DNA from: an uncultured virus (IMG/VR IMGVR_UViG_3300036781_000633)
Lineage: Duplodnaviria > Heunggongvirae > Uroviricota > Caudoviricetes
IMG/VR virus record: IMGVR_UViG_3300036781_000633
Strand: one strand, 5' to 3'
Length of the DNA: 64,000 nt
Positions 15,418-64,000 of the stretch are shown piece after piece. The notes beneath the pieces are model-generated. The model was not told where the DNA came from, made no database searches, and saw only the letters and a list, made by a program, of their open reading frames with translations. Position 1 is the first letter of the stretch. Each line of letters starts with the position of its first letter. A program made the position numbers and the translations under genes.

Positions 15418-15491
15418 ATCCCTCCTTGCGCGCTGGGTATCATTCGGTGGTACTGTCTTGACATCCGGGCACCGCAACGCGAGGAATAGTC

Positions 15492-45682: not shown

Positions 45683-45690
45683 GGGCTACC

Positions 45691-47073: not shown

Positions 47074-47700
47074 TCAGCGCCTCCAGAGAAACCACAGCAG
47101 CGCCGCGGCGCCGCCGAGAAGGATGATCGAACCGATCGAGCCGCTGGTGACGGTCGCTTCCGCGAGCCAGTCGACCGGGTCCATGATGATGTCGAAACCG
47201 GTCTGGCCGTGCGCGTAGTCGGGGATCGGCACGTCGCGGACCTCCCAGTGGGTGTGGTTTGCGCCCGAGGTGGTGCCGACCTGATCGCCGCCTTGGAACG
47301 ACTGACCGACCGGCGCCATGTCCTGGTTGGCCGGATCGAGGTGCCCGAGCAGATGCGTCTTTCCGCTGACGCCCTCGAGCAGGATGATCCACGGCCCGTA
47401 GCCGCCGAACGGCGAGCTTGAGCCATCGGCGGCGGCGATCACCGTGGAGTTCTCGGGCGCGACGACGGGCGTGCCCGCCATCCCGAACACGTCGAGGCCC
47501 GGGTGCTTGCACGGGTACGAGCCGACGCCGCACGAGCCATCGGCGGGCGAGTTGCGCGCCTCGAGATAGCCGCCGTGGCTCCCCTGGATCAGTGGGTAGA
47601 TCGGTGGCTGCGGCTTGCCGTACTCGGGCGGCAACGTCGGGATGTCCGCGTTGCCGAGCGCCTGGTACGCGCGGCCTGCGCGCTCGAGCACGTAGGCCAT
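47074..47700 (-). CDS. M23 peptidase with C-terminal membrane anchor
   Basis: HPGLD (HxxxD), GTPVVAP, HLD, HTHWEVR (HxH), DPVDWL; TM plus RR tail. Confidence 0.88.
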   Translation of the reverse strand: MAYVLERAGRAYQALGNADIPTLPPEYGKPQPPIYPLIQGSHGGYLEARNSPADGSCGVGSYPCKHPGLDVFGMAGTPVVAPENSTVIAAADGSSSPFGGYGPWIILLEGVSGKTHLLGHLDPANQDMAPVGQSFQGGDQVGTTSGANHTHWEVRDVPIPDYAHGQTGFDIIMDPVDWLAEATVTSGSIGSIILLGGAAALLWFLWRR

Positions 47701-48878
47701 CAACGCCCCCGCGGTTTGATCTCGGCGCGCGTGCGTGGATAGTACGCCGCATCGAAGGCAGCCCGTTCCTCCCACGCCTTCACGCGCGCCCGGTCGGACT
47801 CGTCGGCCGCCGCCACGCGCGAGCGATGGGCCGCGACCTGACGCTGTTCGTCGGCCTTGAAGTCACCGAGGCTCATCGCGTAGCGGGGCGCCTCCCCGAA
47901 GTCATCCGCGCGGATCCTGTCCGCGTGCCGCGTGATGGCTCGCCATGCGCTGTCCGAGAGTTGCGGCAGCATGTCGCGTGCATCGGCGACGTACTCGGAG
48001 TGGTCGGGATCCTTGATGGCGCGGCCGTTCGCGAGCCCCTCGGCCCACATCTCGCCCGTGATCATCCCGTCCTTCAGCCTGAACTCACCCTCGATGTAGC
48101 GCAGCGCGCTCGCGAGCTCGTCGATGGTCGGAACCCGGGTGTGCCACGATGGATTGCGGCGATCTCGTCGCCGCTTGCTCGGGTTATTGCGCAGCGTCAT
48201 CTCTTGCCGCGCGGCATCGACGACCGAGTCGAGCGAGCCCTCGTGGAGCATCACGCGCGCCTGATCCTCGTCCATGTCGCCTTCGTTCAAGGCCACCGGG
48301 AAGTACTGGAACAGGAAAAAGTTGTCGCCCTGGTCTTCGTCCTCGACGATGTAATAGTCGCCGTCGACGCGGTTCGGATCGTTCGACGGCCCGAGATGCC
48401 ATGCTGGACTCGACCAGTCGGCGTTGAGGCCCGCGAAGGTCGGCTTGAGGTTCGCGGATTTCATCACATTCGCGATGTCGCGGCGCGCCGTCTTGCGGCC
48501 CCGCTTCCGCTGCGGTTGCACCGCGTGACGCGTCTCGCCCTCCCAGGTCAGATCCTGGCCATCGAACTCGACGTCGAAGATCGGGACCGCGTAGTTCGCC
48601 ATCCCGCGGACGCTCTCGCCCTGGGACATCTTCCACACGCCTTCGCCGAACGCGCGCGGGTTGGGGAACAGGTGCTCCACGGCGCGCCACATCTGATCGA
48701 CCGTCTGCGAGGCTCCATCGGAGAGGAGATCGAGTAGATCCTTGGCCGCGTCGTACGCGCCGGGCGGCGTCGCCGGTGCGCGCGACCTCGAGTAGCCGCG
48801 CCATGCAAGCACCCACAGCGAGTCGGCAATGCCACTAAGCACCTGACTCTCGACACTGGCGGACTTGCGGCTTGGCAT
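47700..48878 (-). CDS. hypothetical multi-domain protein with RRNP linker
   Basis: LRNNPSKRRRDRRNPS separates the domains. Confidence 0.6.
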   Translation of the reverse strand: MPSRKSASVESQVLSGIADSLWVLAWRGYSRSRAPATPPGAYDAAKDLLDLLSDGASQTVDQMWRAVEHLFPNPRAFGEGVWKMSQGESVRGMANYAVPIFDVEFDGQDLTWEGETRHAVQPQRKRGRKTARRDIANVMKSANLKPTFAGLNADWSSPAWHLGPSNDPNRVDGDYYIVEDEDQGDNFFLFQYFPVALNEGDMDEDQARVMLHEGSLDSVVDAARQEMTLRNNPSKRRRDRRNPSWHTRVPTIDELASALRYIEGEFRLKDGMITGEMWAEGLANGRAIKDPDHSEYVADARDMLPQLSDSAWRAITRHADRIRADDFGEAPRYAMSLGDFKADEQRQVAAHRSRVAAADESDRARVKAWEERAAFDAAYYPRTRAEIKPRGR

Positions 48879-48884
48879 GGCTGG

Positions 48885-49367
48885 CTATGCGTCCTTCGCG
48901 ATGTTCTTGTCGATGGCGACCTTCCACCGGCAGAGGCCGAGCCCGAACTCCATCCGGCGGACGTGGCCCTCAAGCTCCCACGTGCACTCGAACGCTTCGA
49001 TCGAGATCGTGCCCGCGTTGTCGGGCCCACCGGTGGTCTCGTACTCGATGTGCTTGCGCTGGCCCGGGATAGTCAGCGTATTGCGACATCGCGGGCAGAT
49101 CAGGTGGACGAACGGCGGTTCGCCGGCGACGTGATAGACGTCGGCCGTCATCACGAAGTCCTTGTACTGGATCAGCGGATGGCAGACGGCGGACTCGGAC
49201 AGTCGCATCGTCGATTGCATGCCCGCATGACTGGTCATTCCCGTCGGGTCGGGCGCGTCACCCGCGAGCTGCACCATCTCGCGCTTGTGCGGGCGCGCGA
49301 GCGCGGACGGCTCGTCGCCCAGGAGGCGGCGGACCGACGGATCGGAGAGGTTGATGTTGAGCGACAT
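48885..49367 (-). CDS. Cys-containing hypothetical protein
   Basis: CPRC...C...C. Confidence 0.6.
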   Translation of the reverse strand: MSLNINLSDPSVRRLLGDEPSALARPHKREMVQLAGDAPDPTGMTSHAGMQSTMRLSESAVCHPLIQYKDFVMTADVYHVAGEPPFVHLICPRCRNTLTIPGQRKHIEYETTGGPDNAGTISIEAFECTWELEGHVRRMEFGLGLCRWKVAIDKNIAKDA

Positions 49368-49410
49368 ATCGAATCCCCGGAGAGGGTTTAAAAGGACGAA
49401 ACACGTCGAG

Positions 49411-49686
49411 CTACGCCGCCGACTCGCTGCGCGCCTTGCGCTTTTTCATCATCATGAAGGCCAGGACGCCGATGCCGCCGATCAGGATGATCGTCGTCGT
49501 CGACGGACCTTGCTGCGCGGCGTACGCCGCCTGGAGGTCGGCCGCTTGCTGCTGCTGCGCGCCGATGGTCCGCTGGGTGGTCCCGAACCAGTTCACGACA
49601 CCGCCCACCGCGCTGCCGATGGTGTCGAGGATGCCGCCCATGCCGGAGTAGCCGGGGCGCGAGATCAGGTTGGACTTGACGAACAT
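49411..49686 (-). CDS. small tail-anchored membrane protein
   Basis: GYSGMGG; TTTIILIGGIGVLAFMMMKKRK. Confidence 0.7.
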   Translation of the reverse strand: MFVKSNLISRPGYSGMGGILDTIGSAVGGVVNWFGTTQRTIGAQQQQAADLQAAYAAQQGPSTTTIILIGGIGVLAFMMMKKRKARSESAA

Positions 49687-49689
49687 GAC

Positions 49690-50109
49690 CTACGCCTCTT
49701 TCTTCTTGCCCATCACCATTACGAGCACGATGGCGGCGCCGCCCAGTAGGAGGACGGTGCCCATATCGGGGCCGGTGGACGGCGGGACCGGGTAGTACGG
49801 CATCGTCGGGGTGGCCGTGCCGAAAATTCCCTTCAGCGCGGAACCGACACCGTCCCAGAATCCGCCGGTGGGGCCGCTCGAGGAGGAGGACGAGCCCGAG
49901 CTCGACGACGCCGGGGGCGCGGGGGGCGGCGTGCCGCCGGTCTCGACGCCATAGGCATTGATGTCGCCGGTGACGTCGTCGCCCATGTTGCGCGGCCACG
50001 TCGTGACACCGGCGCTACCGAATCCCTTCAGCGCGCGACGCATCGCGGGCGAGCGCTTCACGGCGCGCTTCCAGGAAGTAACGGCTCCTTGGTTGTCCTT
50101 CAGGTACAT
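49690..50109 (-). CDS. small tail-anchored membrane protein
   Basis: Basic leader then MGD; TVLLLGGAAIVLVMVMGKKK. Confidence 0.7.
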   Translation of the reverse strand: MYLKDNQGAVTSWKRAVKRSPAMRRALKGFGSAGVTTWPRNMGDDVTGDINAYGVETGGTPPPAPPASSSSGSSSSSSGPTGGFWDGVGSALKGIFGTATPTMPYYPVPPSTGPDMGTVLLLGGAAIVLVMVMGKKKEA

Positions 50110-50110
50110 G

Positions 50111-50416
50111 TCAGCCCTCGCTTGCGACCGGCGTGGTCGACGCGGGGTGCGTCGTCCTGGCCGTGTGGTGATCGGTGGTGTGCTTGCCCTTGCGGACGTG
50201 CTTGATGACGAGGAACGCCGCGAGCGCGATGCCCCCGATGACCACGTAGGTCATCATCGGCGATGACGTGTCGGGGTTGATGGTGCCGGGCGGAACGGCC
50301 GCGGGTGGAGCGACGGGCGGCAGCGCGAGACCACCGGCCATCGTGCCGGCGGGCGCACCAGTCGTGATCCCACCTGCAGCGGCAGCGGTCACCGTGCCCA
50401 TCGCGAGATAGCTCAC
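50111..50416 (-). CDS. small tail-anchored membrane protein
   Basis: GTG start MSYLAMG; YVVIGGIALAAFLVIKHVRK. Confidence 0.65.
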   Translation of the reverse strand: MSYLAMGTVTAAAAGGITTGAPAGTMAGGLALPPVAPPAAVPPGTINPDTSSPMMTYVVIGGIALAAFLVIKHVRKGKHTTDHHTARTTHPASTTPVASEG

Positions 50417-50823
50417 TTCTTCCTCCGCAAGAGGAAGTACGCGCCCAGCCCCAAGCCGCCGAGCAGCAGCACCGACGTGACCGGGAATCCCGAGCTCGAC
50501 ACCGCGCCGGTGGTCGGGTCGACGGTACCGACCACATTGCCATTGGCATCCACGCACTCGGTGGTGGTGCCATCGACGCTCGGGACAACGCGCGCGCACT
50601 GCGACGCGACGGTAGGCGCAGGATTGAGCGCCCACCCGAACGCGCCCTGGATCGCCTGCGTGATCACGTTCTGATCGGCGGCCGTCGGGGTGGGCGACGG
50701 CGGCAGCGGGTTGCCGTTCGAGTCGCACGGCGTGCCGCCGCAGTCATACGACGGCGTGCCGAGCGTCGACGAGACGGTGGCGCCGAGCGCGCCCATGCTC
50801 CGGCGCTTGTGGAAGTAGCTCAC
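50413..50823 (-). CDS. small tail-anchored membrane protein
   Basis: GTG start MSYFHKRRSMGALGA; VLLLGGLGLGAYFLLRRKK. Confidence 0.7.
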   Translation of the reverse strand: MSYFHKRRSMGALGATVSSTLGTPSYDCGGTPCDSNGNPLPPSPTPTAADQNVITQAIQGAFGWALNPAPTVASQCARVVPSVDGTTTECVDANGNVVGTVDPTTGAVSSSGFPVTSVLLLGGLGLGAYFLLRRKK

Positions 50824-51140
50824 GCGCCACCCTTGCGGAAGAACAGATACCAGGCGCCGACGCCGAGCCCGGCGACGATGCAGATCGTCCGTAGCGGGAG
50901 CGCCGGAGCCTGGGCGGTCGACGTCGACGTGGATGTCGAGGTGGTGGCATCCGGTGGGAGCGGAGTTGGAGGCATCGGGATCGGAGGCATCGGCACCGGC
51001 GGTGTGTACACCGGGTCGGTCGGCTGGATGAGTCCGGGCGGGACAATGCCGGTGTCGCCGCCGTTGCTGCCAGGGACGGCACCGAACCCCTGCATGCCGT
51101 TGGGCCATCCTCGGCCGCCCTTTTTCAGGAAGTAACTCAC
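50820..51140 (-). CDS. Pro-rich tail-anchored membrane protein
   Basis: GTG start MSYFLKK...GFGA; IVAGLGVGAWYLFFRK. Confidence 0.7.
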   Translation of the reverse strand: MSYFLKKGGRGWPNGMQGFGAVPGSNGGDTGIVPPGLIQPTDPVYTPPVPMPPIPMPPTPLPPDATTSTSTSTSTAQAPALPLRTICIVAGLGVGAWYLFFRKGGA

Positions 51141-51823
51141 GCGCCACCCCCTGGCCTTTTGCGAAGGAAGAGAAACCACAGCGCGCCGCCGGCCGCCGCG
51201 AGCAGCGCGAGGTTGGTGAGGTTCGTCGACGATGCGCCGCCGCTCGCATCGAGATTGTCATCGGGCGGAGCGGTCGTATCCGTGGGCGGCGGAGGTGGCG
51301 CATCCGGTGGCGGGATCGTCGTGGATGTGTCGCCGCCGCCACCGCCGCCGGACGTGACTGTGCCGCCGCCGCCCGAGCCGCCGGACGTGGTCGCCGTACC
51401 CGGCGGGGTCACGCACTGGAGGAGCTTCGAATCGTACACGTAGCCTGGCTGGCACGAGACCGGCTGCTGTCCGGGCGGCGAGACGATGTTGAACTGGCTC
51501 GGGCCCGACATCGATCCGGTGACGCGCATCGGGCCAACGATCGAGGTCGCGCGCGCGGTCACGGCTGCACCGCGCATGCTCGGGCCGCCAGTGCCGCCGG
51601 CAGGACCACCGCCGATGTCCGATCCCTTCGCGTGCGTCTGGCTGGCCGTGGTGACGATCGATACAGCGCCCAGCGATCCCATCATGCCGATCATGCGCCG
51701 GTCGCGTCGAAGCGATGCCCTGGCGGCGTGGGCACGGCGAGCTCGGCGCGCGGGGTTCCGATCGTACGCGGCGATGGCGCCGGGACCGCGAGTGTGGGCG
51801 TTCTGATCGCGTTCGTACGACAT
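51137..51823 (-). CDS. tail-anchored membrane protein
   Basis: MSY, Arg-rich leader, MGSLGA; LALLAAAGGALWFLFLRKR. Confidence 0.7.
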   Translation of the reverse strand: MSYERDQNAHTRGPGAIAAYDRNPARRARRAHAARASLRRDRRMIGMMGSLGAVSIVTTASQTHAKGSDIGGGPAGGTGGPSMRGAAVTARATSIVGPMRVTGSMSGPSQFNIVSPPGQQPVSCQPGYVYDSKLLQCVTPPGTATTSGGSGGGGTVTSGGGGGGDTSTTIPPPDAPPPPPTDTTAPPDDNLDASGGASSTNLTNLALLAAAGGALWFLFLRKRPGGGA

Positions 51824-52152
51824 CAGTGGTGACCTCCGTGGTGCCCGCCGCCATGTCCGCCGTGCCCGCCGTGCCCGCCGCCATGATGGTGGCCGCGGTG
51901 ACCGCTACGGGCGGTGCCGATGCCGACGCCGACCGGGTACGCCACGTAGTCGTATCCCGACGAGCCATCGTCGTCGAAGTACTCGGCATCCTCGTCGGGC
52001 ACCACGATCACCTGGACCTGCGGAGCGGTGGCCGCTGCGGCGGCGCTATCGATGCCGGCGAGCGTGAACGGCTGCCCCTTCACCTTGGTGAAGATGAAGC
52101 GGTAGCCGACGTAGGCACCGACGCCGATCAGGAGGAGGGCAGGCAGTTTCAT
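51823..52152 (-). CDS. N-anchored membrane protein with His/Gly tail
   Basis: Ends GHRGHHHGGGHGGHGGHGGGHHGGHH. Confidence 0.65.
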   Translation of the reverse strand: MKLPALLLIGVGAYVGYRFIFTKVKGQPFTLAGIDSAAAAATAPQVQVIVVPDEDAEYFDDDGSSGYDYVAYPVGVGIGTARSGHRGHHHGGGHGGHGGHGGGHHGGHH

Positions 52153-52155
52153 GGT

Positions 52156-52542
52156 TCAGTCCTTCCCGAGCTCGTAGCCGATGAGCATCGGCAAGCCGAT
52201 GATGACGGCGGCAGCGAGCGGGTACACCCACGGGTTTTGCTGCGCGTACACGTACCAACGCAGCGGGTAGACCGCCCTGTTCAGGCCAACGCCACCGGGC
52301 AGGCCGTCCGGGGTCTCTGGGCAGTTCGGGACCGGCTGTCCGCCCTGGATAGCGTGGAGCTGCCCGACGTGGCAGAGGACCTCAGGGAGATACGGATCGG
52401 ATGCGATATCGAGGCCCGCACCGATACTGTTCTCGATGCTCGAGATCACGCTCGACAGATCGCCCATTCCGAACATCGGACCGAGTCCTCCGTTGGTGAG
52501 CGCCCTGCGTCGACGACGAATGCTCTTGCGCGTGTATCCCAT
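52156..52542 (-). CDS. tail-anchored membrane protein
   Basis: MGYTRKSIRRRRR...GMGD; C-terminal TM. Confidence 0.7.
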   Translation of the reverse strand: MGYTRKSIRRRRRALTNGGLGPMFGMGDLSSVISSIENSIGAGLDIASDPYLPEVLCHVGQLHAIQGGQPVPNCPETPDGLPGGVGLNRAVYPLRWYVYAQQNPWVYPLAAAVIIGLPMLIGYELGKD

Positions 52543-52682
52543 GATGATCATCCCTACTGGAGTTGCCCCGAGGACGCCCCGTCGCTCTGGGACGGCACGT
52601 CTCTCCGGGTTATTTATGTCGGCTCTTCAACCAACTTCGCGACGCCTTGCGTCGACGAAGCGACCTCAGGGCAACTCCAGAA

Positions 52683-53330: not shown

Positions 53331-53332
53331 GG

Positions 53333-53965
53333 CTACCTTCCGTAGATCCACAGCGCAGCCACGACGGCCGCGCCGATGAGGATGGTGGTGGTGTCGATCC
53401 CGGCGATGGTCGACGATGCGGCCTTGGCGACCCCGTGGAGATCGGCGTAGGTCGCGATGGTCGCCGTGATCGAGTCGATGCTGCCGTTGACGAAGCTCAC
53501 CGGATCCGACCAGCCCTGATTGACCTGGCTGATCAGCGCCGCCGCACCCGCCTTGTCCACGGTGGACTTCGCGTTGCTGTACGCGTCGGTCGCGCGGCGC
53601 TGCACGAGTGTCATCGCTGCCATCGCAACGCCCTGATCGATGGTGCCATTCGTCGGGAAGCCGCTCGCGCCCACGTTGAAGCCGGTCAACTGGTACGCGG
53701 CCGGGGTCGTCGGGTCGAGGAACCGGTTGATCTGAAGGATCAACGTGTTCGCCTTGTCGGCCGACGGTGCCGTGTTCGAGCTCGCCGCCGCGGCGACGCA
53801 CGAATTCGAGCCCCAGTCCCATACCTGCCCCACGTTGCAGACCTGACTGTCGAGATCACTTCCCGCCTGGTCGAGGTCGTCGCCTAGGATTCGGCGCGCA
53901 CTCGTCCGGCCTCGTCGGACGAACCGGCGAGGACGGCGAGCGCCAGCGGTCGAGGCATAGGACAT
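53333..53965 (-). CDS. tail-anchored membrane protein
   Basis: MSY, Arg-rich leader, ILGDD; TTTILIGAAVVAALWIYGR. Confidence 0.7.
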   Translation of the reverse strand: MSYASTAGARRPRRFVRRGRTSARRILGDDLDQAGSDLDSQVCNVGQVWDWGSNSCVAAAASSNTAPSADKANTLILQINRFLDPTTPAAYQLTGFNVGASGFPTNGTIDQGVAMAAMTLVQRRATDAYSNAKSTVDKAGAAALISQVNQGWSDPVSFVNGSIDSITATIATYADLHGVAKAASSTIAGIDTTTILIGAAVVAALWIYGR

Positions 53966-53969
53966 GGGA

Positions 53970-54608
53970 TCAGAGGTTGACGATGCGATAGCCGATCAGA
54001 TCGACGTGGAGGATGCCGGCGGTCGGCGGCGTGGCCGCATCCCAGGTGAACGCGTTGTACGTCGGGAAGAACTGGATCGCCGCGTTGGGCGACCACAGCG
54101 TGGGGACCGGGCAGGGGACGATGTTGTCCGGCCTCGAGAAGATGGGACCGCGAGGTGCGTTCTGGAGGAACCGTTGCGCGCCGCCGTCCTGCATCTCGTA
54201 CATGATGTCGATGATGTCGGTCGTGACTTGCTGCGTCGGTAGCGGGAAGCTCGAGACCGGGCGCCACCGGCCGAAGTTCGTAGCGTTCGTCGGCGCGGTC
54301 GGACGCCACAGCGCCATCGGGTAGTGCGTCATGATGAACGGACCATCCTGCGAGATCTGGATGGTGACCGGCTGTCCGCGCGAGCCGAGATCCGCCGCCG
54401 TGAACGCCACGTCGCCAGAGAATGTCGACTCGATGCGGCGACCCGGGATCGCGTCGATCTCTTCGACGACCGACCGTGGGCGGCTCTGCAGTTCCTGCAT
54501 CGCCTGGATCAGCCACGTGATCTGATTCGACTGCGCGCCGAGTTTGTTGTTCAGGGCGCGCAGGTACGCGGCGTGGGCGTTGATCTTTTGATCGGTCGGG
54601 TTCGGCAT
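53970..54608 (-). CDS. putative capsid protein 2 (single jelly-roll candidate)
   Basis: Soluble; N-terminal coiled coil then a beta-rich domain ending LHVDLIGYRI. Confidence 0.45.
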   Translation of the reverse strand: MPNPTDQKINAHAAYLRALNNKLGAQSNQITWLIQAMQELQSRPRSVVEEIDAIPGRRIESTFSGDVAFTAADLGSRGQPVTIQISQDGPFIMTHYPMALWRPTAPTNATNFGRWRPVSSFPLPTQQVTTDIIDIMYEMQDGGAQRFLQNAPRGPIFSRPDNIVPCPVPTLWSPNAAIQFFPTYNAFTWDAATPPTAGILHVDLIGYRIVNL

Positions 54609-54752: not shown

Positions 54753-55328
54753 CTACTGGACGTCGCGCGTCTGGAGGCCATCGAGCATGTACTTGATGTC
54801 CTTCTGGTCGTCGGTTGCGCCAGCGTTCAGAAGATCGAGCGCCGAGTTCGTGCCCATGTCGAAGAAGTCCGCGGAGGCCGCGAAGTTCTGCCGAACGGGA
54901 ACGATGATCGGGCGCGCGAGCTTCAGGATCGAGCCCTGCTCCGGGGTGCCGAGCGAGAAGATCGAGTTGGTCGCATCGAAGCCCCAGATGCCGCCACCGG
55001 CCGGGTGATACCAGCAAGGGGCAACGAACATCGGCTTGTTGCCGACGATCAGGGTCCAGAACAACTGGGAGGCGACCCCCAGGTAGTTCGCCCGACGGTT
55101 GGTGCCGTCGAAGTAGAGCCAGCAGCGGAGCGCCAGGATCACGTACGTCTGATCCGACGCCAGCTGACCGGCGACCTGGAGGTTGGTCAGCGCGAGCTGT
55201 CCAACGTTGGAGTTTCCGAACAGCTTCGTGCTGCTCGTGATCGGCGTCGCGGGATCGCCGGTCGTGCGGATGAGCGTGTCGTACACCGGCTGGTGTAGAC
55301 GCTCGCGGTAACCATGGAGACGGGGCAT
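54753..55328 (-). CDS. putative major capsid protein (single jelly-roll candidate)
   Basis: 191 aa, beta-rich, AAGGA RBS; QPVYDT, TNLQVAGQL, PIIVPVRQNF, YMLDGLQTR; flanked by non-coding spacers. Confidence 0.55.
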   Translation of the reverse strand: MPRLHGYRERLHQPVYDTLIRTTGDPATPITSSTKLFGNSNVGQLALTNLQVAGQLASDQTYVILALRCWLYFDGTNRRANYLGVASQLFWTLIVGNKPMFVAPCWYHPAGGGIWGFDATNSIFSLGTPEQGSILKLARPIIVPVRQNFAASADFFDMGTNSALDLLNAGATDDQKDIKYMLDGLQTRDVQ

Positions 55329-55468: not shown

Positions 55469-56824
55469 TTAGAAACCGCCGCGGAAGATGCCCTGGTTCA
55501 GGGAACCGGGGTTGTCGTACTGGCTGCCCGCACCCGGGATCTGTTGGGTGAAGGAGCGAGCCGGCACCGGAGCCACGAACTGACGACCCGGCACCTGCAT
55601 CAGCATCGAGTTGCTCGAGACGCCCCCGAGCATATCGTTGCCGAGGTCCTCTTCGACGCCGAGCTCTTCTTCGACGCCGAGCTCCTCTTCGACGCCGAGT
55701 TCCTGCATCGCATCCGAGCCCACCGCGATGTAGTCGCTGAGGGCCAGGTTGTCGTTGATCGGCGACACGTAGTCGCCCACCGCGATGTAGTCGCCCACGC
55801 CGACGTACTCGCCCACGCCGATCATCGACTTGATCGAAGCCGGCATGAACGCCGACACGAGCGTATCGAGGACGTTGAGGGCCGAGCCCAGCATGGCCGC
55901 GTTGCGGTACTTGCCGAGCGCGCTGACCTTCTCGGTCAGGAAGCCGACGCCGAAGAGCGAGCCGATGGCGAGCACCGGGGCCTGCAGCGACCCCAGGTTC
56001 GACACGCCCGGGATCATCGGACCGATCTTGCTGACGATCAGCCGCGACGCGTAGAGGCCGAGCAACACCGGGAGCGCATCCTTCGCGACCTGCATCAGGC
56101 CCGAGATGCTCGGGTTGCGCCGGTAACGACGGCTGTACCGATGGTGCAGCGCGCGACGGCCACGCCGACGCGACCGGCGATGCGTGCGGCGCGCCCGACG
56201 CCGACGTCGGCGCGACGGGTTGCCCAGCATCGTGCCATGACGTCCCTTGGCCATCACGATGGTCGCGCTCGACCGACGCCGACGACGGATCCGGCGGGTC
56301 TTCCGTGCCCGACGCCGACGACGACGCGGGCTGCGACGTGCCCGGCGGCGACGCCGACGGGTGGTCTTCCGCGACCGACGGGCGCGTCGACGACGACGCT
56401 TCGGGGCGGCGGTTGCCTTCCGGCGACGGCGGCGACGCTTCGGGGCGGCAGTCGACTTGCGACGACGCCGACGACGCTTGGGCGACGCCGAGGCGCGGCG
56501 ACGACGGCGATGAACTGCGCGACGTGCCTTGCGCGCGCGACGGGGCTTGCGACGACGAGCCATCTTGCTCACTCCTTTACGGCGCGCCTTGCGCCGGGAA
56601 ACCTTGGTTGCACGCTTCGCCTTGCGCGCTCGAGCGCGAGCTCGGCGCTTTCGGACAACGCCACCGCCCGCGCGCTTTTTGCGCCAGTACGCCGCTAGTG
56701 CCTTGGGCATCTTGCCCTTGCGGGAGCGGCGAGCGGGATTGACCTTGCCAATCCGTGCTCGACCACGCACCACGGCGCCTCTGCGTCCTCTCCTCCGCGG
56801 TCCGTTTACGAACAAAATCGGCAT
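55469..56824 (-). CDS. protamine-like Arg-rich membrane protein (putative genome-condensing core protein)
   Basis: About 230 aa of Arg/Lys runs, hydrophobic segments, VG(E/D)Y repeats and ELGVEE x3. Confidence 0.7.
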   Translation of the reverse strand: MPILFVNGPRRRGRRGAVVRGRARIGKVNPARRSRKGKMPKALAAYWRKKRAGGGVVRKRRARARARKAKRATKVSRRKARRKGVSKMARRRKPRRARKARRAVHRRRRRASASPKRRRRRRKSTAAPKRRRRRRKATAAPKRRRRRARRSRKTTRRRRRRARRSPRRRRRRARKTRRIRRRRRSSATIVMAKGRHGTMLGNPSRRRRRRARRTHRRSRRRGRRALHHRYSRRYRRNPSISGLMQVAKDALPVLLGLYASRLIVSKIGPMIPGVSNLGSLQAPVLAIGSLFGVGFLTEKVSALGKYRNAAMLGSALNVLDTLVSAFMPASIKSMIGVGEYVGVGDYIAVGDYVSPINDNLALSDYIAVGSDAMQELGVEEELGVEEELGVEEDLGNDMLGGVSSNSMLMQVPGRQFVAPVPARSFTQQIPGAGSQYDNPGSLNQGIFRGGF

Positions 56825-57107: not shown

Positions 57108-57452
57108 ATGGCCATGCATGCCGCAACACGTGCTCATTCGAACGTCCTAGACTTCGACGCACGGGTGAAGGATCTCCGCTCTCGCACGGCCAAAGAAGTC
57201 GCGGAGGACCTGGAAGTGCAAGTCCGAACCGTCGACGGCGCGTGGCACCAGAAGGCAATCGGTGGGAAGAGGTCGAAGTGCGGGGAACAAGATCTCACGC
57301 ACGTCGACAATCGCTACTGTCCGGTCCGTGCAGAGAGTTATCTGGGGAGGCTCTGCAGCGATGGTTGCTTCTCCGAGTACGAGATCACAGTCTTGAAGCC
57401 GGCCGCCGAAGAGAAGGCCCGCGAAGAAGACGAGACCGATCAGCGACGCTGA
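57108..57452 (+). CDS. small Cys-containing protein divergent from the capsid operon
   Basis: AAGGA RBS; AT-richer upstream region. Confidence 0.55.
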   Translation: MAMHAATRAHSNVLDFDARVKDLRSRTAKEVAEDLEVQVRTVDGAWHQKAIGGKRSKCGEQDLTHVDNRYCPVRAESYLGRLCSDGCFSEYEITVLKPAAEEKAREEDETDQRR

Positions 57453-57517
57453 CGCGATTCGAGGTGCGCGCTGTTACTTCAACGCCGACCATCTGAACGT
57501 GGTCGGCGTTGTCGTCT

Positions 57518-58126: not shown

Positions 58127-58137
58127 GGTACTGCTCC

Positions 58138-58623
58138 TCAGCCGACGATGCCGCGGCCCTCTACGCGAAGACTACCGCCCCAGATCATCGCAAGCACCTT
58201 CGACTTGCCCTCGACGACGTACAGGCACCGGCCGTCCCCCGGAGACGCGTAGAGCTCGCATCGGGTGCACTCGGCTTCGATCTCCTCGCCGTTCTTCTCG
58301 AACGAGAACCCCAAGCTCTTGCCAAGGAGCACGAGTGCCTCGGCGTTCGCGAACTCCGGCGGCACGTCGGTGTCAGCCTTGCCGTCGGTCAGGCATAGCT
58401 TCACGCCCGGATCGATCTCGTGGATGTACGACAGGGGGCGCCTGGGCTTCTTGAGCGTCGCCGGGTCGACCTTGCCGCTCTCGTACGTCACCCACTTCGC
58501 CGGACCCGCGAGCCGCACGCGCTTGGGGATCGCGAAGCCGTCCTTGAACTCGCCGATCTTCTTCGGCTCGTAACGGTTGAACCGTTTGTACAAAGCAACG
58601 GCATCTCTCGGCGCTTCCCTCAC
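58138..58623 (-). CDS. hypothetical soluble protein in the structural module
   Basis: GTG start coupled to the upstream stop; ends GRGIVG. Confidence 0.6.
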   Translation of the reverse strand: MREAPRDAVALYKRFNRYEPKKIGEFKDGFAIPKRVRLAGPAKWVTYESGKVDPATLKKPRRPLSYIHEIDPGVKLCLTDGKADTDVPPEFANAEALVLLGKSLGFSFEKNGEEIEAECTRCELYASPGDGRCLYVVEGKSKVLAMIWGGSLRVEGRGIVG

Positions 58624-59381
58624 GTCGATACTCCGGCGCCCTTCCTTCGCGTTTTGCCGAACTGCATCAGCACCCACCCCGCGCCGCCGATGATCACGAT
58701 CCACTTCGCGTAGGTCCAGATGTCGGTGAGGTCTCCGCTGACGTGATAAACGAGGTCGCCGACGTTCGCGACGACGCCTGCGATCTTCGACACGATGCCC
58801 CACACCACATTGAACCCGGCCTGGAACGTGCCGATCACGGACGCGAGCCACGGCATGTTGCACGTGAGGTACGCTGCCGTCGCGATGGCGTTGTACGACG
58901 CCTGCATCGAGTCGATCACGTACTGCTTCAGTCCCGGCGAATCGATGACGGTCGCGCCCTGTTGGATGGCCGCGTTGTACTGCGCAGTGAGCTCGAGCCC
59001 CTTCTGGGTCTGCGCGGTGATCGCGTTGTACGCGTCCATCGTCTTCTGCTGCGAATCGCTACTGGGAAGCGGCGCCTTGATCAGCGCGTCCTTCGCTGAC
59101 GCCGCGAGTTGGTAGGCAGCGAGGATGGCGGCGTTGAAGTCGTCGGGCGTGTAGTAGCCGCTCGGCTGCCACTGCGCGTTCGTCTGATCGACCGTCGCCT
59201 GCAGCGTGGCCATCTGCGCGGTCATCTGCGTCTGGCACTGCGAGTCCCGGAACGCGCTCGAGAGCCCGATGCTGCCGGTGACGCCGCTGAGAACGTCTCC
59301 GATGTCGTCGAGGATGCCGCTCAAGGCGCTCTTCCTTGAACGCGCGTGCGGCCGGCGCCGCCGAGTCATTGCATAGCTCAT
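58620..59381 (-). CDS. helical tail-anchored membrane protein
   Basis: MSYAMTRRRR...ALSGI; WIVIIGGAGWVLMQFGKTRRK. Confidence 0.7.
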   Translation of the reverse strand: MSYAMTRRRRPHARSRKSALSGILDDIGDVLSGVTGSIGLSSAFRDSQCQTQMTAQMATLQATVDQTNAQWQPSGYYTPDDFNAAILAAYQLAASAKDALIKAPLPSSDSQQKTMDAYNAITAQTQKGLELTAQYNAAIQQGATVIDSPGLKQYVIDSMQASYNAIATAAYLTCNMPWLASVIGTFQAGFNVVWGIVSKIAGVVANVGDLVYHVSGDLTDIWTYAKWIVIIGGAGWVLMQFGKTRRKGAGVST

Positions 59382-59689
59382 CGGAGCCCCTTCCATGCGA
59401 AGTACGCGATCACGCCGCCGACGATCCACGTCCACGGGCTCGAGATGTCGACATCCCCCAGTGCGCCCGCCGACCCCATCGTAGCGATCCGTCCCATCGG
59501 CATCGCACCAGAGCCGACCTTGCGCGCGTCCGGCGGCACCCGCCACGCCGCCTGGTCTGGCGTCGCGCCGAGCGGCGAGCGCCCGAGGCGAACCGGTGGC
59601 GATCCGGCGTGCGTGCCGTTACCCGGGGCGTCCGACTGGTAGTAGTCGTACGACCGCGTGTCCGGCTTATATACGGAGTACGTGGTCAC
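59378..59689 (-). CDS. small tail-anchored membrane protein
   Basis: ALGD; WTWIVGGVIAYFAWKGLR. Confidence 0.7.
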   Translation of the reverse strand: MTTYSVYKPDTRSYDYYQSDAPGNGTHAGSPPVRLGRSPLGATPDQAAWRVPPDARKVGSGAMPMGRIATMGSAGALGDVDISSPWTWIVGGVIAYFAWKGLR

Positions 59690-59692
59690 GGA

Positions 59693-60139
59693 TTACGGTT
59701 TCTTGAACAGCGACCAGAGCGTGAGGGCTCCTAGCGCGAGGCTGCCCCACATGAACAGATCGTCCATCGAGTCCGAGAACTTGATCGACAGCTTCCCGCC
59801 GCCGCATCCACCCCCGCCGCCGCATCCACATCCGCAGTCCCCCATCCCGCTCATGCTGCGCTTCATCGAAGTAGTCGGGACGTACGTGCGCGCCTGACCG
59901 GCTGGGCTCCGGATGTACGACGGCGCCTTGATGTCACCCAGCGCGGCCCCCATCGGCATGACCTCCGGTGCGCCCGGCTTGGGCAGCACGAGGGTCTTGT
60001 CACCGAACACCGAGCCCTCGAGCGTGGCGCCACCGAGCGAGCCCAGCGACTTGGCATCGGCTGCGCGCGCCTGAACGGGCGGACCGTTCCGCCACGACAT
60101 CGGGCCGCCTTGCTTCTGAAACGCGTAGCCGTATTTCAT
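59693..60139 (-). CDS. small tail-anchored membrane protein
   Basis: Multiple LG/MG sites, GMGDCGCGC, C-terminal TM. Confidence 0.7.
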   Translation of the reverse strand: MKYGYAFQKQGGPMSWRNGPPVQARAADAKSLGSLGGATLEGSVFGDKTLVLPKPGAPEVMPMGAALGDIKAPSYIRSPAGQARTYVPTTSMKRSMSGMGDCGCGCGGGGGCGGGKLSIKFSDSMDDLFMWGSLALGALTLWSLFKKP

Positions 60140-60156
60140 CTGAGAACTCCCCGTGG

Positions 60157-60531
60157 TTAGCGAACGAAGAACAGGTAGGCGGCAAGCAGGCCACCGCCGA
60201 TCAGAAGGTATGTCGTCGTCGACATGCCCTGCGATCCGAACGGCGTACAGATCCCGCTCGCGTTGAGGCCCTGACCGGGCGGGCAAGCGTTCACGCAGTT
60301 GCCGTAAAAGGACGAGTAGACCGCACCCGCGCCGCAGTTGCCCGGGACCGGAGCTCCGGCGGGGGCGATGACGGGATCGGCGACGATGTTGCCGTTCATG
60401 TCGACGGCACCCATCGACGTCGCCGGCCGATAGCTGCGAGCCTGCCCGGACGGCGTGCGGAGGATGTCGCCCATCGAGGTGGTCGGGCGATAGCGGCGAG
60501 CTTGGCCCACCGGGGTTCGGAGAATGCTCAT
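60157..60531 (-). CDS. Cys-rich tail-anchored membrane protein with duplicated leader
   Basis: ILRTPxGQARxYRPxTSMG twice; TTTYLLIGGGLLAAYLFFVR. Confidence 0.7.
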   Translation of the reverse strand: MSILRTPVGQARRYRPTTSMGDILRTPSGQARSYRPATSMGAVDMNGNIVADPVIAPAGAPVPGNCGAGAVYSSFYGNCVNACPPGQGLNASGICTPFGSQGMSTTTYLLIGGGLLAAYLFFVR

Positions 60532-61280
60532 CGTCGGCTGCCTTTCGTAGTCGAGCGTCTCTTCGAGGCGGCGCTCCTGCCCATCAACTGATAGATGACG
60601 AAGCCGCCGACCGCGACGACCGCGACTTGCTGGATCGTGGAGAGGCCACCGAAGGCGCCCAGGATGTCGCCGGCAGCGCTCGCACCTGGCGGCTTGAGCG
60701 TCAGGCCGGACTTCGTGTTGATGCTGCCGCTCGAGGTTGCCTGGGGAACCGTCGCGGGCGCGCCGATGTTGTTCGCGAACATCGTGACCTGGTTGGCGAT
60801 CACGTCACAGCTCGAGGCGACGCCGACACACGAGGAGGTGTCACCGCCAACCGTCTGGCCGGACGCGCTCTGGACCTGCTTCAGCAGCGTGATCGTCGCC
60901 GGGCCGATGTCGCCGTCGACCGTGATCTTGTTGAACCCCTTCACGAACGCGACGCGGTTCATCTGCGACTGGAGGTTTTTCGCGGCGTTGAGCGCCGGAA
61001 AGTCGACCGCCTTGCAGACGCCGCCCATGTTCTTCCAGTCCGAGGAGGAGATCGATCCACCGCTCTGCAACTGGTCGGCGTTGTCGCCGGGGTTGCCGGT
61101 GATGTTGATGTCGCCCGATGACGATCCGCCGGAGTCGACGCATCCACCGGCCGCATCCGACCACACTTGAGCCCCGGAACAGAACACGTCGGTCATGTCA
61201 TCCGATGCGGCGTCGCCCATTCGGATGAGATTGACCGACGATCCTCGATCGTTGATGGGGCGACTGTTGCGTAGGTACAT
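60528..61280 (-). CDS. tail-anchored protein with peptidoglycan-binding-like motif
   Basis: LQSQMN...VDGDIGPAT; MGD site; C-terminal TM. Confidence 0.7.
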   Translation of the reverse strand: MYLRNSRPINDRGSSVNLIRMGDAASDDMTDVFCSGAQVWSDAAGGCVDSGGSSSGDINITGNPGDNADQLQSGGSISSSDWKNMGGVCKAVDFPALNAAKNLQSQMNRVAFVKGFNKITVDGDIGPATITLLKQVQSASGQTVGGDTSSCVGVASSCDVIANQVTMFANNIGAPATVPQATSSGSINTKSGLTLKPPGASAAGDILGAFGGLSTIQQVAVVAVGGFVIYQLMGRSAASKRRSTTKGSRR

Positions 61281-61325
61281 GGAGCGTTGCCTCGGTTGAG
61301 TTACGAGCGAAACACGGGTGGGCGG

Positions 61326-61808
61326 TCAGGCCGCGCGCCTCTTCTTAGAAAAGTGACGATAGACGAAGTACCCGGCGACAGCGTACGTGATGATCCCGCC
61401 TGGCACGTCCGGCAGGAAGTCCAGGAAGCCCTCCAGGCTGTTCAGGAGGTGGGGATCCGGCGGCGTCGGGCGGAGTCGCTTGACCGCCTGCACGCTATAT
61501 GGCGGCGCGCCGGTCGCCGAGCTCGTGCGCGCGAGTAGCGTGCTGACGTTGTCGATCCATGGCAGCGACATCCAGCCTGGCCCTACGACCTGCGCGAGCG
61601 CATCCGCGGTGTCGTCGTCGAGGTAGCCGGTGACCGGTACGCCCAGGTGTTCCTGGATCCGCTTCACCATCAGGATGATCTGCGGGCTCTTCGGGTCGGA
61701 CGTAGCCGGCGCCGAGAATGAGTCCTGAACCATCATCGTCGCGTTGAAGTCACCGACGCCCAGCTGCTTCAGCAGCGAGCGGACGTTGCGGTTGTCGTAG
61801 TTGGTCAT
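61326..61808 (-). CDS. tail-anchored protein with peptidoglycan-binding-like motif
   Basis: VKRIQEHLGVPVTGYLDDDTADAL; C-terminal TM plus KKRR. Confidence 0.7.
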   Translation of the reverse strand: MTNYDNRNVRSLLKQLGVGDFNATMMVQDSFSAPATSDPKSPQIILMVKRIQEHLGVPVTGYLDDDTADALAQVVGPGWMSLPWIDNVSTLLARTSSATGAPPYSVQAVKRLRPTPPDPHLLNSLEGFLDFLPDVPGGIITYAVAGYFVYRHFSKKRRAA

Positions 61809-61828
61809 GGCGTCCTTGCGAGTGGCAA

Positions 61829-62206
61829 TCAGTCCTTCGAGATCATGTACACCGCGAAGATCCCGACGCCGCCGAGAAGGAGCAGCGTGGTCGTATCGAG
61901 GCCGGATGGCGCCGGATATGGGGCGCCCGGCGTGTTCGGCCGCAAAGCATTACCAAAGAGCCCGCCGATAACCCCCCAGATCGGATTACTTGATGATGAC
62001 GAGCTCGAGCCGCCCGAGCTGGCATATGGGGTCGCACCCGGAATCGGCGTGCTCGAGATGACGTTGCCGCTCGCGTCGATGCACTCGTTCTGCGTGCCGT
62101 CGATGGAGACGGCCATGCGCGCACACGTATCTCCGAGCGCGCCGCGCAGTGACGTGGTGGGGCGAAAGCGTCGGGCGGAACCGCGGGGGCTCGGTAGGTA
62201 GCTCAT
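61829..62206 (-). CDS. small tail-anchored membrane protein
   Basis: MSYLPSPRGSARRFRPTTSLRGALGD; TTTLLLLGGVGIFAVYMISK. Confidence 0.7.
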   Translation of the reverse strand: MSYLPSPRGSARRFRPTTSLRGALGDTCARMAVSIDGTQNECIDASGNVISSTPIPGATPYASSGGSSSSSSSNPIWGVIGGLFGNALRPNTPGAPYPAPSGLDTTTLLLLGGVGIFAVYMISKD

Positions 62207-64000
62207 TTCACGGTTCCTCCGGCGGCCGCAGCCGCCTTTTTCTTGCGATTCGACTTCTTCGCCAACGCAGCAGCCAGCACGGCGCCACCGCCAAGGAGAG
62301 CGATCAGCGTCCAGTTCGTCGGATGTGGGATCGGGATGCACTGGCTGATCCCGTTCCACATGTACCCGTCCGGACAGGTGGGAACCTGCGTCCCACCGCA
62401 GAGTGCCGAGCCGACGGTGACCCCGGCACCCGCCGCCGCCCCATAGACTGGGTTCGCCTTGCCTGCACCCTGCGCCGCAGCATTCGCGGCGCCCGGTTGC
62501 GTCAACACGCTGCACGCGAGACCACCGACGGCCGCGACGGCATCATTGACGGCGGTCAACACTGCCTGCGCGGCATCCGAGAGCTTCGAGGGGACGTAAG
62601 CAATCAGGTCCCACAACGGTTGCCACCAAGGCTTCTGCGGCAGCGGCGCGAAGATGAGGCGCATGAACGCGGGCGGGTACGTCACCGTTTGGCTGCCGTC
62701 CGGGTTGGCGGTCACCGTGTATGGATTGCTCATGATGAACATCCACATGCCCCAGTCTTTGTCGTCGGCGTTCGAGTGTTTGACGCCCTGGCGATCTATC
62801 GTGCTTGGCATCACGTCGTAGATCGGCGGATCAGATCCGTCTGATCGAAACTTCACCGCCGGTACCGCCGTGAACTGTTGCGAGTCATAGGACAGCGTGC
62901 CGTCGCTGTTCTGCGTGATGAGGTTCATGTCGAACGTGTTGCCACCTTCGACCGTCATGTCAGGCGTCAGGCCGATGGCGGCGTAGAAGTCGGCAGCCGT
63001 CGGAGACTGGTAGACCAGGTTCACCAGTTTTGCGCCCGGATCGCCAGCGTTGCACCCGCGCGAGCCACAATGGTAGTAGGAGCCCGACTGGGGCGAGCCC
63101 GGGCCGACGAGCTGACTGGCGGGCCATGCGGTTTTATACGCGCCGTTGTCGCCAAGCGGCCTCGTCAACTGCTTCAGCATCCACGGGCGGGCCGCCGCTG
63201 GGATCTGATTGGGCGTCGCGAAATCGACCGCGTACGAGCCGTGGGCAGGATCAAACTTGAACGGTCCCACGGTGATCTCGGTCGGCGACACCACCGTGTT
63301 CGAGGTCGAGATCGACGACACGTTCGTGAGCCCGCCTGCGGCGGCGCTCGTGGCGGCAGCGCTGGTGGCTCCCAGGCTGCGTCGTGCGGCGCGCTTGAAT
63401 AAACCGGCCATGGGTGCCGCGGAGCCCATGGCCGAACAGCCGGTGTATCCCGTGCAGCCGCTCAGGCCGCTCGGTCGCTTGCCCTGACCGCGAAGCGTGA
63501 GCTCGGCGATCATGCCCGCCGACATCGCTCGAGACAGCCCGGCGTGGAGTGCCTGCGCGGAGTTCATGCCCTGGCGGCGGAGATCGCGGGCGATCTTTCC
63601 GGTCCGCGCCTCGAGCGACGGGTCGATCGTCGCCAGTGTCTTCTTCAGGTACTTCGCGCGCTGGTTCGTCGGCAGCATCTGCATGCGCGCGAGGATGTTC
63701 GTGGCGGCGGCCTGACCGTACGACGGGAATGGGTCCGGCATCGGCGCGTCGCCGGCGATCCCGCCCAGCCCGTGGAGCGCTTGGCCACCTTGGTGGACAG
63801 GATGGAGTGGCTTCGCCTTGCCGATCCCCAGGATCGCGCGGAGCCATCCGAATGCGTCGGCCGCGCCCATCGACACCGCCTGGCCTTCGTTCGCTGGCAT
63901 GCCGATAGCGGGCGCGACCATGGTGATCTTCTGCGTGCCGCCGCTGTTCGGGACCCGCCGGTCGGAGAGGACCTGGGGGCGGCGGTTCAGGTAGTGGGGG
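62203..64000 (-). CDS. large tail-anchored virion protein, 5' truncated by the window edge
   Basis: Frame stays open past 63921 to the window end; ends WTLIALLGGGAVLAAALAKKSNRKKK. Confidence 0.7.
   Translation of the reverse strand, partial: PHYLNRRPQVLSDRRVPNSGGTQKITMVAPAIGMPANEGQAVSMGAADAFGWLRAILGIGKAKPLHPVHQGGQALHGLGGIAGDAPMPDPFPSYGQAAATNILARMQMLPTNQRAKYLKKTLATIDPSLEARTGKIARDLRRQGMNSAQALHAGLSRAMSAGMIAELTLRGQGKRPSGLSGCTGYTGCSAMGSAAPMAGLFKRAARRSLGATSAAATSAAAGGLTNVSSISTSNTVVSPTEITVGPFKFDPAHGSYAVDFATPNQIPAAARPWMLKQLTRPLGDNGAYKTAWPASQLVGPGSPQSGSYYHCGSRGCNAGDPGAKLVNLVYQSPTAADFYAAIGLTPDMTVEGGNTFDMNLITQNSDGTLSYDSQQFTAVPAVKFRSDGSDPPIYDVMPSTIDRQGVKHSNADDKDWGMWMFIMSNPYTVTANPDGSQTVTYPPAFMRLIFAPLPQKPWWQPLWDLIAYVPSKLSDAAQAVLTAVNDAVAAVGGLACSVLTQPGAANAAAQGAGKANPVYGAAAGAGVTVGSALCGGTQVPTCPDGYMWNGISQCIPIPHPTNWTLIALLGGGAVLAAALAKKSNRKKKAAAAAGGTVK

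Follow-up and report, generated by a model that had tools for sequence, protein, structure and literature searches.

The locus examined here raises the question of why many late proteins of one virus, with mostly different bodies, begin alike. It lies at positions 47,074-64,000 of a 64,000-nucleotide stretch of DNA (the window) from an uncultured virus classified in the Caudoviricetes (IMG/VR record IMGVR_UViG_3300036781_000633), where proteins start with MSY, MY or a close variant and reach, after a spacer, a site of the general form [LM]G[DA]. An original prediction, made from the letters of the window, held that about 15 virion membrane proteins carry such leaders, that the basic stretch of the leader recruits them into the assembling particle and that a protease then clips it. 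Sequence comparison indicates that the leader is conserved as a protein-level signal and that only late or structural genes carry it, their products being predicted in most cases to be membrane-anchored. We are fairly sure that the tag serves tail-anchored late proteins as a functional address, probably one that directs them into the virus particle. The [LM]G[DA] element may in addition be the cut site of a transglutaminase-like enzyme encoded just beyond the window.

Genes were called with our own codon-bias caller, which gave 133 genes with starts chosen among ATG and GTG options; gene calls, start choices and membrane predictions all follow simple rules of our own. All nine N-termini quoted in the original prediction were located in the sequence, on the minus strand. 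When all 133 genes were scored for a start option M[STAG]Y or MY followed by [MLFIV]G[DAGNS] within 62 residues, the rule was matched by 11 of the 27 genes at 47.0-62.3 kb versus 0 of 101 elsewhere (Fisher p 5e-9), and also by one of five genes at 13.2-15.9 kb, the 14293 gene. The enrichment over non-structural genes that the original prediction called for is thus present, and its count of about 15 is fair, as six incomplete variants (49411, 48885, 59378, 59693, 60157, 62203) stand beside the 11 full-rule genes. As that prediction had also noted, the open reading frame (ORF) track missed GTG starts, of which there are three (at 50416, 50823 and 51140); two further genes (59381, 62206) need an upstream extension to reach their MSY start. 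A Shine-Dalgarno-like purine run precedes most tagged starts.

Comparison was extended to a complete relative (G001, 82.6 kb), which shares 54 of the 133 proteins at 30-76% identity with gene order kept, to 15 further loci from viral contigs, of which 14 were analyzed (L014 was replaced by the rotated G001 region), and to a distant group of five loci whose capsid protein is about 30% identical and whose genomes measure 95-179 kb. Cross-locus statistics refer to 12 close loci with 366 genes, among which orthologues are non-independent and inflate p-values. In this set 105 of 366 genes have Tyr as second or third residue under the start option M[STAG]?Y, while residues of similar frequency are found there far less often (F 15, H 25, W 14; F/H/W/M/N span 14-30), and both Tyr and site are present in 76 genes. 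The 76 tagged proteins fall into 30 BLAST clusters, including an M23 peptidase, which bears out the description of their bodies as mostly different. Relatives whose capsid protein is 30-80% identical have retained the tag. G001 orthologues retain the M-x-Y start and the site around a spacer that varies in length and sequence, as in MSYERYRRRLPFQAMGD against MGYTRKSIRRRRR..GMGD in our virus, MTYLRKAPPRRYVRRRSLGDD against MSYAMTRRRR..LSGILDD and, for the M23 peptidase, MTYTRIRRCALGA against MAYVLERAGRAYQALGNA; the 14 further loci show the same pattern, and in the distant group 17 of 133 genes are tagged (e.g., MSYQFFRGLGDD and MSYANFPVGDD). The codons at position 2 are varied (AGC, AGT, TCG, TCC, ACG, ACC, GCG, GCC and others), which points to selection at the protein level.

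Leaders run 5-60 residues to the site, whose logo, with the site Gly fixed by the search pattern, has G30/A23/S15/P12% at -2, L39/M35/V18% at -1 and D59/A25% at +1. The predicted turn from basic to acidic composition is real on average, with a mean net charge of +2.9 in the leader and -1.8 in the next 20 residues. The basic stretch is nevertheless optional, since 24 of 76 leaders hold zero or one Lys/Arg and minimal leaders such as MYLPMGD and MSYIRPMGD exist. Of the proposal that basic leaders recruit proteins and a protease clips them, there remain a conserved signal on anchored late genes and a candidate protease; the basic character does not hold throughout, and clipping was not seen. Nor are the leaders export signals: a Sec-like hydrophobic core (a 12-residue hydropathy window of at least 1.8 in the first 60 residues) occurs in just 5 of 71, a Tat-like pattern in 0 of 71 and a lipobox in 1 of 71.

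At the other end, nearly all tagged proteins possess a hydrophobic C-terminal helix, often with Gly-Gly inside, a Thr-rich segment before it and a few Lys/Arg after it. By eye the layout is [ST]TT, then the Gly-Gly-containing helix, then Lys/Arg, recalling signals of the sortase, exosortase or rhombosortase type in general layout only. Across the close loci, with orthologues again non-independent, a C-terminal anchor is predicted in 52 of 76 tagged versus 50 of 290 untagged proteins (odds ratio 10.4). A plain hydropathy rule gives a membrane segment in 17 of 33 proteins of the two late blocks, C-terminal in 13, and in 14 of 100 others. The simplest topology would have the protein anchored by its tail, its N-terminal domain lying in the cytoplasm. 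From gene position and the predicted anchors we infer that the tagged proteins are virion membrane proteins; the same evidence, taken with how many proteins are anchored and with the absence of both tailed-phage genes and a conserved packaging ATPase, also suggests that the particle holds a lipid layer. Searches covered 132 proteins against Pfam (cut-off E <= 0.01) and 71 late-region proteins against PHROGs, and yielded no terminase, portal, HK97-type capsid or prohead protease.

The site itself is found beyond the leaders. The motif [GASP][LMV]G[DA] occurs 10-fold over shuffles in leaders and 2.1-fold over shuffles elsewhere in block proteins (81 versus 38.3), and is at expectation in 163 non-structural proteins (19 versus 22.4). 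Depletion of the motif in mature protein bodies was looked for, and this enrichment was seen instead. In a 678-aa membrane protein (62203..64000, minus strand, the gene continuing past the window to 64239), which starts MAYNLPPAWDPGF, two internal [LM]G[DA] sites occupy conserved places, and the family shows the element at two aligned positions (e.g., QPAGMGDDAP, LGAMGDDTAG). Tandem units ending in [SG][LM]G are found in the proteins of 60157-60531 and 14293-14673 and in the distant group (AYYKNxYNQxINGLG twice, MRQPGSVHEGSLG three times), and look like peptide arrays with sites between the units.

A 451-aa protein (55469..56824, minus strand) consists of a 240-residue protamine-like N-terminal region (51% R+K, with repeats KRRRRRRK(A/S)TAAP) and then a hydrophobic and acidic C-terminal part with the repeats GVGDYIAVGDY and LGVEEE (three copies). 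It is conserved in 11 related loci, where the basic regions span 183-335 residues, and looks like a protamine-like DNA-condensing protein on a membrane-bound carrier. Where the Arg-rich domain ends, 13 of 13 rows have an Asn-Pro pair; in our virus this boundary reads ..YRRNPSISGL, and in 6 of 13 rows (6 of 12 orthologues; 5 of 11 full-length relatives) it reads NPG[LI]GD or NPAGGD, with the hydrophobic domain next.

The original prediction recorded no cognate protease in the window. A search of the flanking contig turned up a candidate 252 bases past the window end, a transglutaminase-like enzyme of 198 aa at 64252-64848 of the joined sequence (L001:19038-19631) that is 60% identical in G001. 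Its C119, H157 and D174, in the order Cys-His-Asp, are invariant in 7 and in 25 sequences. Pfam Transglut_core matched one of seven orthologues (E 2.7e-6) and not the virus's own protein, and a sequence-profile search of the PDB gave no match for the enzyme. An AlphaFold2 model (pLDDT 82.6) found as its best Foldseek PDB matches the putative cysteine proteases 3kd4 (E 4.5e-5) and 3isr (1.3e-4), followed by PNGase, TglA, LapG (4fgq, 4fgo, 4u65), the cell-wall isopeptidases PeiP and PeiW, N-acetyltransferases, the inactive Rad4 and transglutaminases; a viral structure library gave nothing named beyond the psiM2 pseudomurein endoisopeptidase. By its modeled fold the enzyme falls within the transglutaminase-like group. 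It is the best protease candidate for the tag, and we infer that it is a protease acting on the tag motif. It is present in five of five distant relatives, while the M23 peptidase occurs in two of five (both below cut-off) and in neither of the two complete genomes, which keep the tag. No membrane segment was found in the enzyme by hydropathy, and no signal sequence or wall-binding domain by eye. A complex prediction of its residues 30-198 with residues 1-60 of the 52156 protein (score 0.04, mark 0.32, without controls) carries no weight either way.

In five of seven relatives (L009-L013 and G001 set), the in-frame sequence upstream of the enzyme's conserved YGG..LFW.PD is ..[SA]G[LMG]G. Two relatives have no start codon at that point, and the frame must start upstream of ..SG[LG]G/YG.., where the slash (here and in the leaders listed below) follows the site Gly. 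In these two, translation thus probably includes a short N-terminal extension that has a site-like element at its end; that it is a self-processing site is only suggestive. In another relative (L017:1466-2956, plus strand), an insert of about 310 residues sits directly before C119, begins with Cys, ends ..VSN followed by Cys and weakly matches LAGLIDADG_3 (E 0.0013); Transglut_core matches this protein at E 0.0048, below cut-off. The insert is probably an intein, and inteins usually lie at key sites of essential proteins.

As a whole, the best explanation of these observations, held tentatively and with slightly less than even confidence, is a shared assembly tag that is cut by the transglutaminase-like enzyme. 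In this proposal, M-[STAG]-Y ... [GASP]-[LMV]-G-[DA] would be an N-terminal assembly tag common to C-tail-anchored membrane proteins, and the tagged N-terminal domains would stay cytoplasmic, on the side that would become the outer face of the particle's lipid layer. [LM]-G-[DA] would be recognized, and probably cut after Gly, by the cytoplasmic enzyme of 64252-64848. It would also cleave the 678-aa protein at two linkers and release the protamine-like domain of 240 aa from the membrane-bound carrier, in the style of an adenovirus core precursor. The reading of the motif as a cut site draws on its marking of domain boundaries, its position at the end of repeated units and at the border of the protamine-like domain, and its travelling together with a Cys-His-Asp enzyme. 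We regard as possible, without thinking it probable, a more specific form of this scheme, in which a two-part address (N-terminal M-S-Y...[LM]GD with a C-terminal Gly-Gly helix and basic tail) would sort proteins into the lipid layer of a tailless virus, a transglutaminase-like cysteine protease would trim them and a protamine-like polypeptide would be released to condense the genome.

Several points weigh against cutting. No cleavage has been observed, and sequence analysis cannot show it. Not every protein with the transglutaminase-like fold is a protease (PNGase, transglutaminases, N-acetyltransferases, PeiP/PeiW and Rad4 are among the exceptions), and co-occurrence of enzyme and motif within one virus family is not independent evidence. 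Enrichment of the motif in structural-protein bodies suits a repeated docking motif as well as it suits cut sites, and leaders of 5-8 residues seem pointless to remove and can be read as one binding motif. Our virus itself has only a degenerate site at the enzyme N-terminus and at the Arg-rich boundary, and neither the capsid fold nor a particle membrane is established.

The alternative that survives best, possible if on balance doubtful, is that Y..R.P..[LM]GD is an uncut docking or sorting motif that binds the capsid shell, a 570-aa coiled-coil scaffold-like protein or another lattice, so that viral membrane proteins would be gathered under the growing shell and host proteins excluded, with tandem units raising avidity. 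It accounts readily for minimal leaders that amount to one compact unit of 6-9 residues, for the repetition of this unit in several proteins, for a motif that is twofold enriched rather than avoided in structural-protein bodies and for the strong association of tag and anchor (odds ratio 10.4). Also in its favor, the protease activity of the enzyme is only predicted. It accounts less well for a Tyr-to-site distance that ranges from 2 to about 55 residues among orthologues, which would be hard for one binding pocket, and for the 52156 family, in which the conserved body begins at the site without a linker. Docking would also leave the conserved Cys-His-Asp enzyme that heads the operon without a task, and would not explain why the motif marks domain boundaries, as cut sites do.

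We consider it unlikely that the leader is a general contact element for membrane or DNA, in which Tyr and Arg/Lys would rest on acidic lipid or DNA and set topology, with [LM]G as a helix-breaking hinge. The change of mean charge from +2.9 to -1.8 and the RR pairs found in 32 of 71 leaders would fit such a role, and the existence of a separate protamine-like protein implies that charge neutralization matters to the virus. Against this, the 24 of 76 leaders with zero or one basic residue retain Tyr and site, as do 7 of 17 in the distant group (Y...GLG), and the strict placing of Tyr and the four-residue logo are more specific than a charge patch needs.

Similarly improbable is a role for the enzyme in entry or lysis, as a cell-wall hydrolase of the PeiW/PeiP or NlpC/P60 type unrelated to the tag, any cutter being M23 or a host protease. 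PeiP, PeiW and the psiM2 endoisopeptidase are among its fold matches, the M23 protein itself bears the tag, and M23 enzymes cut next to Gly. The genome, however, already has GH25, M23, a transglycosylase-like protein (motif by eye, no family match) and a weak peptidoglycan-binding match, and the enzyme, as described above, shows neither membrane segment nor signal sequence nor wall-binding domain. Its presence in all five distant relatives, against two of five for M23 and neither of the complete genomes that keep the tag, likewise speaks against M23 as the cutter. Last and very improbable is that the leader has no function of its own and is a duplication remnant, an RNA-level translation signal or a Sec, Tat or lipoprotein export signal, a view already largely refuted by the 30 unrelated clusters that include enzymes, the synonymous-diverse codons, the export-signal tests (5/71, 0/71, 1/71) and the keeping of the tag across 30-80% divergence, although three small neighboring genes at 50111-51140 that start MSYL or MSYF could be duplicates.

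The scheme of a shared, cut assembly tag has partial parallels. The capsid targeting sequence (CTS) of phage T4 is a fixed decapeptide cut at L/I-X-E and is removed by the prohead protease gp21, an assemblin-type serine protease. Diverse internal proteins of T4 are described as sharing a short conserved N-terminal sequence, which takes them into the assembling particle (PMC3012670). An N-terminal targeting sequence common to several particle proteins is what is seen here as well (11/27 versus 0/101); the tag here differs in being bipartite, of variable length and ended by [LM]-G-[DA], in its membrane-anchored cargo and in its transglutaminase-like cysteine candidate. The T4-type set of prohead serine protease, HK97 capsid, portal and terminase was not found in the searches described above, and the site does not follow Glu. 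In giant phages, SPN3US gp245 is described as removing N-terminal propeptides from eight head proteins, with 14 sites in nine substrates and the motif A-X-E (PMC10052503). Giant-phage maturation (SPN3US gp245, phiKZ gp175) resembles our case in its many propeptides, its short motif and the several sites in long propeptides; motif and protease family are different, the substrates are soluble head or ejection proteins of a tailed phage and they have no common extreme N-terminus. The T4 internal proteins (PMC3012670) and SPN3US (PMC10052503) make the earlier statement that no described phage system has this many leader-tagged substrates an overstatement.

The adenovirus protease AVP has the adenain fold (family C5) with the order His-Glu-Cys. 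It resembles the scheme proposed here in having basic DNA-binding core precursors and many substrates per particle (pVI, pVII, pX/Mu, pTP); the enzyme here has Cys119-His157-Asp174 in a transglutaminase-like fold, and the host is bacterial. Pfam gave no adenain match among the 132 proteins. AVP sites are Gly-centered with a hydrophobic residue upstream, as in IVGL/G and a Met-Arg-Gly-Gly substrate (PMC4246237). The AVP patterns (M/I/L)-X-G-G/X and (M/I/L)-X-G-X/G are not those seen here, where L/M/V stands next to Gly rather than three positions ahead of the cut and is itself preceded by a small residue, and the resemblance is in kind only. LapG clips an N-terminal retention piece off the adhesin LapA at a small-residue site, and is periplasmic, calcium-dependent and devoted to one substrate. 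It is of the same fold family as the enzyme here, at 14-18% identity, and no match to the Pfam LapG family was obtained. Judged by protease family, site and capsid genes, the system is a member of none of the T4 CTS, giant-phage and AVP systems.

For membrane-containing bacterial or archaeal viruses we know of no shared leader or maturation protease, and our literature searches found none. PRD1, PM2, Sphaerolipoviridae and Portogloboviridae share with our virus many small membrane proteins in a late operon and small beta-rich capsid candidates, and Portogloboviridae also, as that family is described, a nucleoprotein core and the lack of a detectable packaging ATPase (PMC8459092). They differ in that the genome here is four to eight times larger and shows no sequence match or reliable fold match to their capsid proteins. 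In the literature that our searches reached, seen in part, there was no published description of the tag, the virus group or a transglutaminase-like virion protease.

How membrane-containing viruses choose the proteins of their own particle membrane and exclude those of the host is an open question, and a short tag common to a dozen unrelated membrane proteins would make it directly testable. If the enzyme cuts the tag, the virus would offer a bacterial parallel to adenovirus core maturation, and to our knowledge no transglutaminase-like viral maturation protease has been described before. If the two-part address is true in full, adenovirus-like core maturation would have arisen independently in a widespread, undescribed lineage of large tailless viruses without a visible packaging motor.

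The tagged genes lie on the minus strand unless stated otherwise. The M23 peptidase (47074..47700; Pfam PF01551, E 7.7e-8) starts MAYVLERAG..ALGNA with the leader MAYVLERAGRAYQALG/NA and ends in a C-terminal anchor; its orthologues begin MTYTRIRRCALGA and MTYARAVQALGA. Two variants follow, MSLNINLSDPSVRRLLG/DE at 48885..49367, in which no anchor was found and whose G001 orthologue reads ..RVQQMLGG, and MFVKSNLISRPGYSGMG/G at 49411..49686, which has a C-terminal anchor and orthologues beginning MAYMRN..GYSGVGD. The protein of 49690..50109 has the leader MYLKDNQ..WPRNMG/DD and a C-terminal anchor. The three GTG-started genes encode MSYLAMG/T without a basic stretch and with one membrane segment (50111..50416), MSYFHKRRSMG/ALGA, whose quoted N-terminus is MSYFHKRRSMGALGA, with a C-terminal anchor (50413..50823), and MSYFLKKGGRGWPNGMQGFG/A, also with a C-terminal anchor (50820..51140). 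A long leader with 12 Lys/Arg, MSYERD..RRDRRMIGMMGSLG/A, opens the C-terminally anchored protein of 51137..51823, whose G001 orthologue has MSYMRDPD..RGALGL. The protein of 52156..52542 has the leader MGYTRKSIRRRRR..PMFGMG/D and a C-terminal anchor. When 10 orthologues of it were aligned, just ten columns proved invariant, three of them being M1, Y3 and the site Gly. Beside it, the small protein of 51823-52152 (minus strand) has an N-terminal membrane helix and a His/Gly-rich C-terminal tail (..HRGHHHGGGHGGHGGHGGGHHGGHH), a topology opposite to that of its tail-anchored neighbors; it is kept in six related loci and may bind metal.

Further along, MSYASTAGARRPRR..ARRILG/DD begins the protein of 53333..53965, which has a C-terminal anchor, and MSYAMTRRRRPHARSRKSALSG/ILDD, with a variant site [LM]SG, begins that of 58620..59381, which starts MSYAMTRRRR..LSGILDD and has a weak C-terminal anchor. 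At 59693..60139 the variant start MKYGYAF..KSLGSLGG is followed by internal PMGAALGD and SMSGMGD, and the C-terminally anchored protein of 60157..60531 has two tandem 20-aa units, ILRTPxGQARxYRPxTSMG[DA]. The leader MYLRNSRPINDRGSSVNLIRMG/DA belongs to the protein of 60528..61280 (MYLRNSRP..RMGD), with a membrane segment near the C-terminus, and MSYLPSPRGSARRFRPTTSLRGALG/D to that of 61829..62206 (MSYLPSPRG..ALGD), with a C-terminal anchor. Outside the range of the original prediction, the 14293..14673 gene on the plus strand encodes MSYTRKPMSG.. with two repeated units ending in ALAG and ALGG and a C-terminal anchor; its G001 orthologue begins MYFRKQQRALSG..SLGDD.

Two proteins of the late block that lack a leader are candidates for capsid proteins. 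The 191-aa protein of 54753..55328 (minus strand), the most conserved of the virus and our query for relatives, gave an AlphaFold2 model from 20 sequences (pLDDT 47.6) too poor to name a fold, and a PDB sequence-profile search of it returned nothing meaningful (best E 0.16, transporters). In the ESM Atlas it led to unnamed viral clusters, with a weak lead (0.77) to the PM2 P2 / PRD1 P3 jelly-roll families. The 212-aa beta-rich protein of 53970..54608 (minus strand), ending ..GYRIVNL, is present in 17 of 17 loci and is possibly a second capsid protein; it had no family match, and nothing was found for it in the ESM Atlas.

The virus genome is an 83.9-kb contig (G000:C12) of which the window is a rotated copy: places 17730-64000 correspond to C12:83855-37585, and places 1-17700 map to the opposite end of C12. 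As the window spans both ends, the contig closes on itself. Over places 4001-6001 there is a difference of 57 bases between window and contig, so the window derives from a slightly different copy of the record. GC content is 62-70%. Public data contain 654 homologues of the 191-aa protein, almost all of precisely that length and encoded on contigs of 72-104 kb, and 50,697 GenBank phage records gave 0 matches. Together these results indicate a virus family that is common yet uncultured, its genomes being about 80 kb long. None of 40 genomes related to G000 carries the gene of this capsid candidate, and no integrated copy was seen in them; the four bins of metagenome-assembled genomes that hold relatives bear four different phylum labels.

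Family matches in the late region were very few. The named late genes are three pectate-lyase/depolymerase-like spikes (38983-45682), the M23 peptidase and the weak peptidoglycan-binding match; the named early or accessory genes are integrase, GH25, Dam, QueD-like, PAPS-reductase-like and ParB. The sole P-loop protein, at 28356-30158 (minus strand), is HerA/FtsK-like with weak Pfam matches, and was ruled out as a packaging motor since G001 has no orthologue. No conserved packaging ATPase or motor was seen among the 132 proteins. A tyrosine integrase and a ParB-like protein occur in one genome (window 2026-3219, minus strand; L001:4399-5445, minus strand), a pair from which the virus may be temperate or maintained like a plasmid. 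A 7-deazaguanine-type DNA modification set at 21381-24344 (minus strand) and 9991-11052 (plus strand) comprises radical SAM, QueD-like PTPS (E 9e-31), PAPS-reductase-like (E 6e-28) and DUF5131 (E 1e-70) proteins. Finally, the region 38980-46146 (minus strand) encodes the three spike-like proteins (687, 742 and 718 aa, with pectate-lyase/depolymerase domains) and a 151-aa protein; all four have a similar N-terminus, MSKxL(S/T)AD.., and the spike-like proteins look like interchangeable receptor-binding proteins on one adaptor.

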